This document shows positions 30,205-33,575 of a stretch of DNA of 33,575 nt, piece by piece. The stretch's first letter is position 1. Each line of letters begins with the position of its first letter. The translations under genes were made by a program, and so were the position numbers. This DNA is from a virus (Duplodnaviria; Heunggongvirae; Uroviricota; Caudoviricetes), in IMG/VR virus record IMGVR_UViG_637000261_000005; one strand, 5' to 3'. The notes under the pieces are model-generated. The model saw only the letters and a list, made by a program, of their open reading frames with translations, did not search any database and had not been told where the DNA came from.

Positions 30205-30212
30205 TGAAGTGG

Positions 30213-31052
30213 TCAACAAAAACTGGCCACCGAGTTAGAGTTTTTCCAGTATCGATTTTCCGATTCGTTTGGGGGTAACCCACCGTTATATTCGTGCGGT
30301 CTTAGTGCGCTGTAATATCCAACGATATAGTCCGTTATGGCGTGAGCTGCCTCGCTGAAGCTTACGTAACCCACCACCGGCATCCATTCGTTCTTCAGAC
30401 TCCTGAAGAAGCGTTCCATTGGGCTGTTATCCCAGCAGTTTCCGCGCCGGCTTATACTCTGTCTGATCTGGTATCGCCACAATAACTGCCGGAACTGCCT
30501 GCTCGTATAATGACTGCCCTGATCGCTGTGGAACATCACCCCGCCGGGCTTACCACGGGGTTCCCATGCCATTTCCAGCGCTTTCATGGTGAGCCTGCTG
30601 TCCGGCGAGAACGACATGGCCCAGCCCACTGGTTTTATTGCGAACAGGTCGAGAACAACGGCGAGGTACGCCCAGCGCTTACCCGTCCAGATACAGGTCA
30701 CATCACCGCACCACACCTGATTTGGCTCGGTCACGGCGAACTGCCTTTCAAGGTAGTTAGGGATAGCAACATGTTCATGACCACCACGTTTATACCGGTG
30801 AGTCGGCTGCTGACAGCTGACCAGCCCCAGCTCTTTCATGAGCCTGCCAGCAAGCCAGCGTCCCATCTGGTAGCCTCTCCGGGTTGCCATTGTGGCGATG
30901 CTTCTTGCTCCGGCCGAACCATGGCTGATGCCATGTAGCTCAAGTACCTGACTGCGTAATACAGCCCGTCTGCCGTCTGGTTTTTCAGGACGGTTTTTCC
31001 AGTATCTGTAGCTGCTGCGATGAACCCCGAACACTTGGCAGAGTGTGACCAC
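30213..31052 (-). CDS. IS911 transposase OrfB (made as OrfAB fusion by frameshift)
   Basis: 279-aa ORF recognised as IS911 OrfB with DDE integrase domain. Confidence 0.85.
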
Positions 31053-31078
31053 AGGATAATGCGCTCTGAGTTTCCCGA

Positions 31079-31381
31079 TTATCGAGAACTGTTCAGGGAG
31101 TCTGACATCAAGAGCGCGGTAGCCTTTTTTAATATTTCATTCTCCATTTCAATGCGTTGTAGCTTTTTCCTCAGCTTACGTATTTCGATTTGTTCTGGTG
31201 TTATCGGAGAGGCTTTTGGTGTTTTGCCCTGACGCTCATCACGCAGTTGTTTGACCCATCTTGTCATTGTGGAAAGGCCAACATCCATAGCTTTGGCGGC
31301 ATCTGCCACCGTGTATTTCTGGTCAACAACCAGTTGAGCGGATTCGCGTTTAAACTCTGCGCTAAAATTTCTTTTTTTCAT
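31079..31381 (-). CDS. IS911 transposase OrfA
   Basis: [49 protein letters not shown]... recognised as IS911 OrfA; ATG at 31379-31381. Confidence 0.85.
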
Positions 31382-31453
31382 TGGAGCACCTGTGTTGTTC
31401 TGAGGTGAGCATATCACCTCTGTTCAGGTGGCCAAATTCAGTGTGCCACTTCA

Positions 31454-31719
31454 AACCGAAGAACACGGCGGTGCGGAGTCCGGAGAGTAACGGAATAGCA
31501 GAGAGCTTCGTGAAAACGATAAAGCGTGACTACATCAGTATCATGCCCAAACCAGACGGGTTAACGGCAGCAAAGAACCTTGCAGAGGCGTTCGAGCATT
31601 ATAACGAATGGCATCCGCATAGTGCGCTGGGTTATCACTCGCCACGGGAATATCTGCGGCAGCGGGCTTGTAATGGGTTAAGTGATAACAGATGTCTGGA
31701 AATATAGGGGCAAATCCAC
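31454..31719 (+). mobile_element. IS2 3'-terminal fragment (about 266 bp), abutting IS911
   Basis: Near-identical to 1455-1719 of the complete IS2, ending in GGGGCAAATCCA at 31719. Confidence 0.85.
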
Positions 31720-31917
31720 TGCGGCACAGATCAGCTCGGAAAGTTCGTTAAGTGCATCCAGATCATCAGCGTAAAAAGCCACGTCATACAGACTTCGGAT
31801 TGCTCTGGTCAATGAGTCACGGGCCGCACGTTCAGCATGAGCGCCTGATGCACTTAAGCGAAAATAAAAACGCTCAAGTGCTTTGTTAATGAGAGTTTTA
31901 TATTCTTTGCCCATCAC
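31720..31917 (-). pseudogene. Small early-region ORF, 3' end replaced by the IS2 fragment
   Basis: MMGKEYKTLINKALERFYFRLSASGAHAERAARDSLTRAIRSLYDVAFYADDLDALNELSELICAAV then IS2-derived codons; family not recognised; second gene of the early operon by position. Confidence 0.45.
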
Positions 31918-31925
31918 AACGCCCT

Positions 31926-32126
31926 TTAATCTGCTTTCTGTATTTCAGCTTCTGAATCCATACAAATAATTTCGATATAGGGTTCATCGCCATTAACCTG
32001 GCGTGCCTTTTCAGCTTCGCTAATGATTTCTTGTACGGTCTGGTACGGAAGTTCCACAAGCAGTCGCGTGCCGTTCAGATAAACGTAAGTGGCTTCGTCG
32101 GCTCCGTTTTTACCCGCCGGAGTCAC
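31926..32126 (-). CDS. Small early-region ORF open to the IS629 boundary (possibly 5'-truncated); cox-position gene by synteny
   Basis: 66 codons from a GTG at the IS629 junction; no internal ATG near the start; family not recognised. Confidence 0.4.
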   Translation of the reverse strand: MTPAGKNGADEATYVYLNGTRLLVELPYQTVQEIISEAEKARQVNGDEPYIEIICMDSEAEIQKAD

Positions 32127-32168
32127 TGAACCGCCCCGGGTTTCCTGGAGAGTGTTTTATCTGTGAAC

Positions 32169-33059
32169 TCAGGCTGCCAGATCATCGTTTCCGATGGAAG
32201 CATAATAAGCTTTTTCTGCTTCTGCCGGAGGGATGTGGCCCAGCCTTTCCAGCAATCGTCGATTATTATACCAGTCCACCCACGTGAGTGTGGCCAGTTC
32301 CACTTCTGCACGGTTTTTCCAGCTCTTACGGTGTATTACCTCCGCTTTGTAAAGACCATTGATGCTCTCCGCCATCGCGTTGTCATACGAGTCGCCTGTA
32401 CTTCCTGTTGATGCCAGTAATCCGGCTTCCTTAAGCCGCTGTGTGTAGGCCAGCGATACATACTGAGAACCTTTATCACTGTGATGGACCGTGCCGGACG
32501 GTCGACGGGCCCATAACGCCTGCTCCAGTGCATCCAGCACGAATGTCGTCTCCATGGACGATGAGACCCGCCACCCCACGATGTATCCGGCAAACACATC
32601 AATGATGAACGCCACATAGACGAAGCCCTGCCATGTGCTGACGTAAGTAAAATCAGCCACCCACAGCTGGTCAGGTCGTTCTGCCACGAACTGACGGTTT
32701 ACGCGGTCGCCTGCGGCAACGGCTTTCCGGCTGATGGTCGTACGGACCTTTTTACCCCGGAGAACACCGGCAAGTCCCATAACCGCCATGAGACGTGCCA
32801 CAGTGCATCTGGCCACTCTGATGCCTTCCCGTAACAACTGACGCCAGACTTTACGCACACCGTATACCTGATGATTCCCATCGTATACGCGCAGTATCTC
32901 TTTCTTCAGCCAGTCATCGCGCTGCGCACGGGCACTGCGTTTATCAGGATGATGTCGCTGTTGCTGACAGTGGTAATACGTTGACGGGGCAATATGTAGT
33001 TCACTGCATACCGGTCCGACCCCGTACAGCTTACGCAGCTTATCCAGCAGTGGCATCAC
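32169..33059 (-). CDS. IS629-like transposase OrfB
   Basis: 296-aa ORF with DDE domain. Confidence 0.85.
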
Positions 33060-33382
33060 TTTTTCCAGAGGCGGTCGAACTCCGCCTTCGCAAAATAAGC
33101 GGAAGCCTGGCGAAGGATATCGTTACTGCGGCGCAGTTCACGATTTTCACGTTCCAGCTCTTTCAGACGCTGACGTTCAGCGGTGGTGAGCCCGCCATCA
33201 CCGCCTCCGGTATCCCGCTCATGCTGGCGTACCCAGACACGCAGAGTCTCCGGTGTACAGCCAATCTTTGGGGCAATGGAACAAATTGCCGCCCACTGTG
33301 AGTCATATTCGCCCTGACTTTCCAGAACCATACGAATCGCCCTCTGACGGACTTCGGGGGAAAAACGAGTATTTTTAGTCAT
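33056..33382 (-). CDS. IS629-like transposase OrfA
   Basis: 108-aa ORF with helix-turn-helix region and leucine-zipper-like C-terminus. Confidence 0.85.
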
Positions 33383-33436
33383 CCTGTTTACCTCTTTCTC
33401 AGGGAGTTTAGTCTCCAGGATTCCCGGGGCGGTTCA

Positions 33437-33575
33437 CATGATGAACGGCGGCAATATTCTGACGCTCCAGAAAATTCTGGGGCACGCAAAGATTCAGACA
33501 ACGATGATTTATGCCCATCTTGCGCCGGATTACCTGCAGGATGCGGTGAGGTTTAATCCACTAGGAGGTGCTTAA
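33437..33575 (+). pseudogene. int: Integrase C-terminal remnant (last 45 codons of a P2-type tyrosine recombinase)
   Basis: MMNGGNILTLQKILGHAKIQTTMIYAHLAPDYLQDAVRFNPLGGA-stop closely matches the P2 Int C-terminus including the catalytic Tyr region; begins at the IS629 junction and ends at the window edge. Confidence 0.8.

Follow-up and report, generated by a model that had tools for sequence, protein, structure and literature searches.

Insertion sequences and gene loss at the early end of a P88-like prophage in Shigella

The prophage and its insertion sequences

The window, by which we mean the whole 33,575-nucleotide stretch of DNA analysed, contains a P2-type prophage. Its last 11.9 kb (21678-33575) are 100% identical to CP000036.1, which is S. 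boydii serotype 4 strain Sb227 (PMC8767353). In Sb227 the prophage lies between ihfA and btuC, the same chromosomal site that is occupied in Escherichia coli CT30 and SE11. The window ends at the int stop codon, though two further genes precede btuC, and prophage callers that set the boundary there should be used with caution. The closest phage model is P88 (Xuanwuvirus P88, Peduoviridae, NC_026014.1). The structural module has 97.7% nucleotide identity to P88, with 95% of a 14.2-kb block covered, and tblastn searches with P88 proteins recovered the P88 gene order as a collinear map on the window. This shared order is int-C-cox-DUF4761-hyp-DUF4754-...-gpA-ParM-ParR-...-portal. A preliminary annotation made from the sequence alone (the sequence-only reading) had taken P2 as the model; the P2 family stands, while the appropriate model is P88 rather than P2 itself.

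Of the genes that P88 and the CT30 and SE11 prophages have, C, cox, DUF4761 and gpA are absent from the window, int is mostly gone and parM has lost its 5' third; P88 C, Cox, DUF4761 and gpA proteins found no match in the window by tblastn. In addition, ogr contains an IS2, the reading frames of N, FII, D and M are broken by frameshifts or stop codons, and the cargo gene that lies between gpD and ogr is a different one. An IS-mediated inversion was considered for the inverted FI-U tail block and rejected, because the block is the same way round in CT30 and P88 and its orientation is thus native. Of this region, only the invertible tail-fibre segment is different. The features that concern us here are the following.

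401-1719, plus strand: full IS2 copy, 1319 bp, in the late activator gene ogr, with ACGG on both sides
29599-30204, minus strand: 3' remnant of parM, codons 119-319 of 319; codons 1-118 lost at the IS911 IRR end
30205-31453, minus strand: IS911 (IS3 family), 1249 bp, full length and apparently intact; IRR at 30205, IRL at 31453
31454-31718, plus strand: 3' piece of IS2, 265 bp, last 83 TnpB codons and IRR end; 5' side cut by IS911
31719-31914, minus strand: 5' remnant of the DUF4754 gene, codons 1-65 of 80, with 12 read-through codons in the IS2 end
31926-32126, minus strand: last 66 codons of a 95-aa early-operon ORF; first 29 codons lost at the IS629 IRR end
32127-33436, minus strand: IS629-type IS3-family element, 1310 bp, both ORFs open; IRR at 32127, IRL at 33436
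33437-33575, plus strand: 3' remnant of the integrase gene, one base, last 45 codons and stop; codons 1-280 missing

The IS911 copy has the positions given in the sequence-only reading. Its computed termini are imperfect inverted repeats (TGAAGTGG...TGGCCACC), and it has the size (~1250 bp), the repeats starting TGAAGTGG and the CA-3' end expected of IS911. It is 98.6% identical, without gaps, to positions 1312-2560 of the E. coli 19KM2326N locus (L014), annotated there as 'IS3-like element IS911 family transposase, programmed frameshift'. The NCBIfam model transpos_IS3 matches both ORFs, orfA and orfB have a -1 frameshift arrangement, an AAAAAAG motif lies inside the element at ~31124-31130 on the minus strand, and the Sb227 annotation (L006) gives a 389-aa frameshift product. 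Its flanks read GTT and AAC, so that the 3-bp target duplication is lacking; we attribute this to a secondary rearrangement, and it does not weaken the identity of the element as IS911.

The second element has computed inverted repeats TGAACCGCCCCGGG, an orfA of 108 aa and an orfB of 296 aa with a DDE (rve) domain, as expected of its group, and profile matches to transpos_IS3, rve and HTH_Tnp_1. We take it to belong to the IS629/IS1203 group from its inverted repeat sequence and from NCBI labels such as 'IS3-like element IS1203 family'. Re-reading its termini and flanks gave CAC and CAT, as already reported, rather than a 3-bp duplication. At neither IS911 nor IS629 do the flanks contain a direct repeat of 2, 3 or 4 bp, even with the termini shifted; the intact duplications that the sequence-only reading had named as evidence against itself were not found. 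The IS2 copy in ogr, a gene for which the annotated CT30 copy serves as reference, is by its ACGG duplication a simple insertion and provides an internal contrast to these junctions.

The fragment next to IS911 is indeed from IS2, but is 265 bp long and ends at 31718, not 266 bp ending at 31719 as first described. Alignment with plasmid pST866 and intact prophages fixes its end at ...CAAATCCA; the C at 31719 already matches the intact prophage and hence lies outside the fragment. It has the IS2 IRR end (...GGGGCAAATCCA), corresponds to positions 1055-1319 (the last 265 bp) of the full copy at 401-1719 with 99.6% identity, and matches positions 219-301 of 301 of the IS2 TnpB profile NF006918 (E=2e-54). 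This is all of IS2 that is left here.

Four genes are cut at these elements. The integrase stump has its coding part at 33438-33575, in agreement with the 45 codons previously counted after IS629. It includes the catalytic-Tyr motif (Pfam Phage_integrase 143-169 of 172) and is 100% identical to SE11 (L001 11430-11568) and CT30 (L002 19039-19177), where the full-length gene encodes 325 aa. The ParM-like gene had also been recognised as cut by the other end of IS911: the window is collinear with CT30 to 30204 (L002 position 12205), and P88 ParM residues 119-319 align at 99% (tblastn), retaining Pfam StbA_N 119-157 of 158 and the complete ParM C-terminal domain. The two small ORFs that were thought to be left of the early region are present as fragments, neither of them intact. 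The DUF4754 remnant matches Pfam DUF4754 positions 1-65 of 80, and its read-through frame stops at 31678, within the IS2 end. The 95-aa ORF is a complete CDS in SE11 (L001 9207-9494), where the match to the window ends at 9407; its remnant had no match in Pfam or NCBIfam. The early fragment starting at 31719 is 99.8% identical to SE11 (L001 9000-9408).

A functional temperate phage of this type would have complete int, C, cox, gpA and ogr genes, whereas here int retains 45 of 325 codons and ogr is split by IS2. Judged from its gene content, the prophage is evidently a defective remnant and not a functional P88-type member. With the integrase, repressor, Cox, replication initiator and late activator gone, it would be unable to excise, replicate or be induced.

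Deletions beside IS911 and IS629

Phage P88 and the prophages of CT30 (L002) and SE11 (L001) were used as intact comparators, and all three are collinear with the window on both sides of each gap. This alignment, which the sequence-only reading had proposed, defines the endpoints and confirms that DNA collinear with the intact relatives, including most of int, the repressor gene and the replication gene A, is missing beside one end of IS911 and one end of IS629. Deletion 1, of ~4.4 kb in CT30 coordinates, took out ParM codons 1-118, gene A and small genes of the early region, and it reaches 15 codons into the 3' end of DUF4754; the gap is now occupied by IS911 and the IS2 stub. Deletion 2, of 2,022 bp, comprises the first 29 codons of the 95-aa ORF, DUF4761, the ORF at the Cox position, the C-type repressor gene and int codons 1-280, and this gap is now occupied by IS629. 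By Pfam the lost genes include GPA, an HTH repressor, DUF4761 and Int_N. Every breakpoint falls at an IS tip within 0-1 bp. The IS itself remains, without a target duplication, between flanks that align collinearly with the intact references. Comparison with related strains thus shows that the integrase, repressor and replication genes went in two distinct deletions, each anchored at an IS.

P2-like early regions are mosaic, and the segment 31719-32094 is 94.9% identical to CT30 and 99.8% to SE11, which would be in keeping with a variant that never carried the missing genes and into which the ISs were plainly inserted. This explanation is refuted by four genes cut mid-codon exactly at IS tips and by sister loci that share the junctions J1, J5 and J2 and still have the int-C-cox block.

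J1 is the breakpoint between parM and the IS911 IRR, and J5 the other end of IS911, against IS2. IS911 is reported to target IR-like sequences. We dropped J1 as such a target: its match of 8/12 is reached by 1.1% of all prophage positions, and its IR-likeness is therefore not significant. Intact IS911-in-IS2 nests occur in the 19KM2326N chromosome and in p1_ST866, and in both the IS911 IRL adjoins the interior of IS2 orfB, as it does in the window; the site in p1_ST866 is 18 bp away from that of the window. In 19KM2326N both IS2 halves flank IS911 with a short overlap, as expected of a target duplication, whereas in the window the 5' 1,066 bp of IS2 are gone and parM adjoins the other IS911 end. 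A recurrent IS911/IS2 composite was rejected: matches with 100% coverage were two-piece joins or lay at other IS2 positions, 18 bp and ~540 bp from the window junction, so that this junction is not a shared module.

Order of events among Shigella loci

Our comparison of 15 Shigella-type loci orders the two deletions. J1, J5 and J2, and with them deletion 1, are present in 15/15. J4, the IRL side of IS629 at int codon 280/281, occurs in 10/15, as does deletion 2, and J3, the junction on the IRR side of IS629, in 8/15. The remaining five loci (L003, L004, L005, L007 and L010) have intact int (312-325 aa), C, Cox-position ORF, DUF4761 and 95-aa ORF. Since deletion 1 is found throughout and the int-C-cox block is whole in 5/15, deletion 2 is the later event; the loss took place in two events apart in time rather than in one. 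In L020 and in L019 (CP026811.1, S. flexneri 6 strain 64-5500), J4 is retained, but another 286 bp beside the IRR end of this IS629 (window positions 31841-32126) are missing, and the new junction again lies at the IS629 tip TGAACCG. The ten loci therefore form a nested deletion series on one IS629 end, in which J4 is fixed and the IRR junction is J3 in eight loci and 286 bp further in two.

IS-rich regions are a classic place for misassembly, and a chimeric IS cluster was another outcome that the sequence-only reading had named against itself. The same 40-mers span each junction in 8 to 15 independently assembled loci, complete chromosomes included, and the finished chromosomes of Sb227, ATCC 8700, ATCC 9210 and S. 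flexneri 6 strain 64-5500 agree with draft and Logan assemblies. The chance that the cluster reflects collapsed or chimeric IS copies is thus negligible. The missing segments might instead have moved elsewhere by IS-mediated inversion or translocation, leaving reciprocal junctions outside the window. Shigella chromosomes are known for IS-mediated rearrangements, and the sequence read extends ~20 kb around the locus. The order and orientation from parM through the early fragment and the int stump to btuC are kept, which an inversion would disrupt, and the layout is identical in ten loci; we consider relocation highly improbable.

Simple insertions of these elements do carry duplications, as seen for a second IS629 inside IS911 in one locus (L007, with a clean 3-bp GGC/GGC duplication) and for the IS2 in ogr (ACGG); the intact IS911-in-IS2 nest of 19KM2326N is a further control. 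Sister strains have a second IS629 1.4 kb away in the same orientation, so multiple insertions in a small region do occur.

J1-J4 were not found in 5,426 complete E. coli genomes, a collection without Shigella, with queries of 90 bp of unique sequence and 30 bp of IS. Shigella is merged into E. coli in GTDB. The clade of S. boydii Sb227 and S. flexneri serotype 6 can be typed by the five junctions, which are exact and ordered markers, and the strains form a natural time-course from an intact P88-like prophage, through deletion 1 only and the Sb227 state, to the S. flexneri 6 state.

Possible origin of the deletions

This is the early end of a dead P88-like prophage, emptied by two separate deletions that are anchored at IS termini and were most likely driven by transposase. 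In the older event, IS2 would have entered after DUF4754 codon 65 and IS911 would then have entered IS2 orfB. The DNA beyond the IS911 IRR may then have gone: the 5' 1,066 bp of IS2 and what was left of DUF4754, together with gene A, the small genes of the early region and the first 118 codons of ParM. The original junction of this event could be that of IRL with IS2 or that of IRR with parM. In the younger event, IS629 would have entered int at codon 280/281, with J4 as its IRL side, and 2,022 bp may then have been lost on the IRR side, reaching codon 29 of the 95-aa ORF. In a derived lineage with S. flexneri serotype 6 strain 64-5500, the IS629 IRR end would have moved a further 286 bp. The comparisons show where the deletions end, which genes went, in what order this happened and that each deletion is anchored at an IS terminus. 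We infer, for each IS, which of its two junctions dates from the insertion, and that transposase, rather than RecA, was the agent.

RecA recombination between two same-orientation copies of one IS predicts exactly the product seen: the IS is whole, its flanks are collinear and no duplication is present. For deletion 2 the pair would be IS629 copies in int and in the 95-aa ORF, and for deletion 1 IS911 copies in IS2 and in parM. Each copy would have been a simple insertion with its own duplication, and deletion of the interval would leave one hybrid copy with unrelated flanks. The independent IS629 1.4 kb away in sister strains speaks for this explanation, as repeated insertions occur. So does a patch of four SNPs within 295 bp in which the Sb227 IS629 differs from the orthologous copy in nine other loci; this clustering suggests exchange between copies, as in gene conversion, and that homologous recombination on IS629 is active. 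Against it, no two-copy intermediate was found among the 15 Shigella-type loci or the 5,426 complete E. coli genomes, and the 286-bp loss in L019 and L020 would need another same-orientation IS629 within 286 bp and another recombination. The IS629 of L019 is also base-identical to orthologous copies without the extra deletion and has no sign of a second donor, although an identical donor would leave none. A comparison of the L019 copy with that of Sb227 gave no second-donor SNPs; the sole patch is specific to Sb227 and uninformative on the deletion mechanism. We regard recombination between copies as the less probable explanation, though one to be taken seriously.

Each intermediate would have a recognisable signature. 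IS629 in int would show int...CAGTCATTTCAT + TGAACCGCCCC, with the CAT duplication and an intact upstream side, and IS629 in the 95-aa ORF GGGGCGGTTCA + CAC + TCCGTCAATAG. The IRL side of IS2 in DUF4754 would show ...CCCCGCATTCTGCG + TAGACTGGCCCC, and on the parM side parM...GCGGTT would be followed by IS911, with GTT repeated on its far side. A search for the IS629-in-int intermediate with the 45-codon int fragment led instead to an unrelated lineage (L016, L022, L024), in which a deletion without an IS has fused int, at a point 70 bp upstream of J4, to the tape-measure gene.

Transposase-driven adjacent deletion is the most likely mechanism, with the same end product as recombination between two same-orientation IS copies; of the IS-mediated adjacent deletion first suggested, the deletions themselves are thus confirmed and the mechanism is the favoured one of two that converge. 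The transposase would cleave the 3' end of the IRR, and this end may be joined to the same strand at a nearby position in the flank rather than beside the IRL, as in the 'sloppy' strand transfer that has been proposed for IS629. Replication would then fix a deletion with one endpoint exactly at the IS tip; the IS would stay in place and no target duplication would arise. Deletions adjacent to IS629, from a few bp to >40 kb, and a model of sloppy strand transfer have been described (PMC9943667; bioRxiv 10.1101/2023.06.07.543989). Copy-out-paste-in transposition alone should regenerate the donor (reviewed in bioRxiv 10.1101/2023.06.07.543989), so the step that resolves it into a deletion is still hypothetical. 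We speculate, tentatively and as something rather unlikely, that IS629 (possibly also IS911) makes repeated polar deletions, always from the IRR end, by one-ended same-strand transfers in a host without the IS-excision enhancer (IEE). If true, the sloppy strand transfer route of copy-out-paste-in elements, so far a hypothesis, would gain in vivo support.

The nearest known cases are the flanking and IEE-promoted deletions at IS629 in E. coli O157 (Ooka 2009; Kusumoto 2011; both cited through PMC9943667 and bioRxiv 10.1101/2023.06.07.543989). The IS type is the same. Those deletions likewise run from the IS terminus, over lengths between a few bp and tens of kb; they too inactivate genes of prophages without a target duplication being left, and the proposed chemistry, an aberrant strand transfer by an IS3-family transposase, is alike. 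The host there is EHEC, whereas here it is S. boydii or S. flexneri 6; the IS is retained here, while IEE was reported mainly in connection with IS excision; and here a parallel event with IS911 nested in IS2 adjoins the IS629 deletion.

In kind, the locus does not differ from the IS-driven genome reduction of Shigella; it is one well-resolved local example with living intermediates. Shigella genomes typically contain IS copies by the hundred, along with pseudogenes and deletions bounded by ISs, and prophages are among the degraded regions. Yang et al. 2005 is reportedly the genome paper for Sb227, an example of this reduction. The IS-driven decay of the prophage is thus ordinary, already known biology and opens no new question. 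It illustrates the well-documented IS-driven genome decay in Shigella and explains why this prophage is inert.

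Insertion sequences and the phage type

Positions 21678-33575 of the window are identical (100.000%) to CP000036.1, the chromosome of Shigella boydii serotype 4 strain Sb227 (PMC8767353). Intact versions of the non-IS pieces occur in E. coli prophages located between ihfA and btuC. Among isolated phages, Escherichia phage P88 (Xuanwuvirus, Peduoviridae) comes closest, with 97.7% identity across 95% of a 14.2-kb query. The P88 order is int, C, Cox, DUF4761, a hypothetical gene, DUF4754, several small genes, the replication endonuclease (gpA), ParM, a ParR-like gene and portal, which indicates that ParM is native to this phage type. 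P2, the template of the sequence-only reading, serves in outline, but P88 is the proper model. P88-type prophages have already been described, and IS911, IS2 and IS629 are classical elements. IS3-family ORFs were confirmed with NCBIfam and Pfam in these features (IRL and IRR, left and right terminal inverted repeats):

30205-31453, transposase genes on minus strand: IS911, 1249 bp, IRR at 30205, IRL at 31453
31454-31718: 3' stub of IS2, 265 bp, directly adjoining IS911
32127-33436, minus strand: IS629, 1310 bp, IRR at 32127, IRL at 33436

Direct reading of the region and computed termini place IS911 and IS629 where the sequence-only reading had put them. The IS2 fragment does abut IS911, but is 265 bp long and ends at 31718, not 266 bp ending at 31719: the stub terminates in ...GGGGCAAATCCA at 31718, base 31719 (C) already matches intact prophages in alignment, and homology to the p1_ST866 plasmid stops directly after TCCA. 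The stub corresponds to the 3'-terminal 265 bp of the full-length IS2 at 401-1719 (99.6%) and to positions 219-301 of 301 in the IS2 TnpB profile. IS911 is flanked by GTT and AAC and IS629 by CAC and CAT; as had been claimed, neither has a target duplication, even when the termini are shifted. Simple insertions of the same IS types show normal duplications, GGC/GGC for an IS629 within IS911 (locus L007) and ACGG/ACGG for the complete IS2 in ogr, and an IS911 within IS2 in E. coli 19KM2326N retains both IS2 halves with a short overlap. The absence of duplications at the parM/IS911 and IS911/IS2 junctions (J1, J5) and on both sides of IS629 (J3, J4) is therefore informative.

IS911 has inserted independently into IS2 orfB in the p1_ST866 plasmid (L013 2726-3343), 18 bp from the position in the window, and in the 19KM2326N chromosome (L014 783-3365); IS2 may be a recurrent IS911 target. 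From junction searches and comparison of the nested copies, we rejected the IS911/IS2 junction as a shared composite.

Two deletions and their order

At IS911 and the IS2 stub (deletion 1), window positions 30204 and 31719 correspond to 12205 and 16618 of locus L002, which holds the intact E. coli CT30 prophage, a gap of 4,412 bp in CT30 terms; the region is mosaic, so the ancestral interval may have differed. Missing are ParM codons 1-118, gpA (941 aa, Pfam Phage_GPA), a 129-aa ORF, smaller ORFs, the last 15 DUF4754 codons and also the 5' 1,066 bp of IS2. The remnants match Pfam StbA_N positions 119-157, in keeping with the proposed cut of the ParM gene by the IS911 end, and DUF4754 positions 1-65 of 80. 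At IS629 (deletion 2), window positions 32126 and 33437 correspond to 9407 and 11430 of locus L001, which holds the intact E. coli SE11 prophage, leaving a 2,022-bp gap (1-bp T ambiguity). Lost here were codons 1-29 of a 95-aa ORF, DUF4761, a 92-aa Cox-position ORF (no Pfam match for the SE11 copy), a 102-aa HTH repressor and integrase codons 1-280; the integrase tail was confirmed by Pfam/NCBIfam profile search. The alignments with CT30 and SE11 thus supply both endpoints for the IS-anchored loss of most of int, the repressor and the replication gene that had been proposed. The two small early ORFs thought to be left in 31720-32126 are both fragments (DUF4754 without its last 15 codons, the 95-aa ORF without its first 29), since the deletion endpoints fall inside them.

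Searching for exact matches to the chimeric DUF4754::IS2 ORF and the 45-codon int remnant yielded Shigella-type loci, and five junctions were scored as exact 40-mers in 15 loci. J1, J5 and J2 (IS2/DUF4754) are present in 15/15, J4 (IS629/int) in 10 and J3 (95-aa ORF/IS629) in eight. Five loci with deletion 1 (L003, L004, L005, L007, L010) retain the 95-aa ORF, DUF4761, the Cox-position ORF, the repressor and a full integrase, and have no IS629 at the J3 or J4 site. This indicates that deletion 1 is older and deletion 2 later and lineage-specific. L019 (CP026811.1, S. flexneri serotype 6 strain 64-5500) and L020 keep J4 and have lost window 31841-32126, with a new junction, ...GTTCAGCA/TGAACCG (3-bp TGA ambiguity), at the IS629 IRR tip. 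The Sb227 layout recurs in S. boydii ATCC 8700 and ATCC 9210, and the identical junction 40-mers in independent assemblies exclude the chimeric assembly that the earlier reading had considered. A native mosaic variant without these genes is likewise excluded, as the breakpoints lie at IS tips and sister loci still carry the int-C-cox block.

Among these loci, L003, L004, L007 and L010 (~11173-12483) carry an extra IS629 within IS911, at window 30743-30746, with a clean 3-bp GGC duplication. In L005 (~11540-11549) IS911 instead has an internal deletion of ~82 bp (window ~30284-30366), the alignment blocks overlapping by ~10 bp.

Decay elsewhere in the prophage

The IS2 at 401-1719 is complete (1319 bp; an E. 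coli IS2 copy is 12 bp longer), has the orientation of the stub at 31454-31718, and is a simple insertion that splits the late activator ogr. Compared with P88, gpE' may carry a stop, and four further genes are altered:

5422-6528: gpD, in-frame stop
7870-8377: FII tail tube gene, split over three frames
22489-23229: M small terminase, 247 of 266 aa
23278-24326: N capsid gene, split, with a stop

Between gpD and ogr, in the slot where CT30 carries a SIR2 and ATPase pair as cargo, lies a 1039-aa orphan ORF (2051-5170, minus strand). The ORF has hydrophobic N-terminal helices followed by a long, AT-rich soluble portion, and searches against Pfam, PADLOC and PHROGs gave no match. In a set of 5,426 complete E. 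coli genomes its DNA turns up in only 5, each time in the ogr-gpD interval, where it is labelled 'MFS transporter' or hypothetical. The gene may serve as an uncharacterised cargo of the prophage or in defence. We rejected an IS-driven inversion of the tail operon, whose orientation is native, being the same in CT30 and P88. The tail-fibre segment by the DNA invertase gene (13214-15660, 12298-12915) has the opposite orientation to that in CT30, which reflects ordinary Cin/Gin-type host-range switching and no IS rearrangement.

The window ends at the int stop codon; ORFs of 120 and 145 aa, with no Pfam match on record, follow before btuC (L006 7538-8337) in every strain, whether or not its prophage is intact. 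A look-up with the int fragment for an IS629-in-int intermediate returned instead an unrelated lineage at the same ihfA-btuC site (L016 3930-4000, L022 ~914-984, L024 ~30-100). There an IS-less deletion of ~28 kb fuses the tape-measure gene (~codon 106) to int at a point 70 bp upstream of where IS629 sits, an independent decay route of the same prophage family.

Mechanism of the deletions

Both gaps end precisely at the tip of an intact IS and have flanks collinear with those of intact phages; at IS629 the IRL end (J4) is constant and the IRR end advances stepwise among loci. Such a pattern is the hallmark of IS-anchored adjacent deletion, and two sequential events of this kind are almost certain. 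That the segments were relocated and not lost is highly improbable, given the preserved order and orientation of the remaining pieces. The best-supported chemistry is that described for IS629. Transposase-dependent deletions adjoining this element range from a few bp to >40 kb (PMC9943667), and one explanation put forward is that the first strand transfer is 'sloppy' and goes elsewhere than to the opposite end (bioRxiv 10.1101/2023.06.07.543989). A transposase-driven route is, in our judgement, the probable one here. The cleaved IRR 3'-OH would join the same strand farther along its own flank, and replication would then fix a deletion starting at the IS tip. By analogy with IS629, the IS911 nested in IS2 would have removed the DNA beyond its IRR end as far as parM. 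The breakpoint in parM showed no significant resemblance to an IR (background 1.1%).

RecA recombination between two same-orientation IS copies would give the same product. Two observations favour it: in sister strains an independent IS629 of the same orientation lies just 1.4 kb away, and the Sb227 IS629 has four clustered differences (32529, 32550, 32604, 32823) from the orthologous copies in nine other loci, which agree among themselves; this patch probably reflects gene conversion from another IS629 copy. However, no two-copy intermediate was found among the 15 Shigella-type loci or the 5,426 E. coli genomes, and the 286-bp step would need one more nearby insertion. The RecA route appears possible but doubtful. 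Junction searches of the same complete E. coli genomes gave no J1-J4 intermediates.

The strain series might even be a record of repeated, IRR-polar, one-ended transposase events in vivo, although we regard this as unlikely. The Sb227 genome has been public since 2005, and in E. coli O157 deletions flanking IS629 have been documented to immobilise prophages. IS-driven decay is a hallmark of Shigella genomes, and the local history reconstructed here is a tidy one of a known kind.
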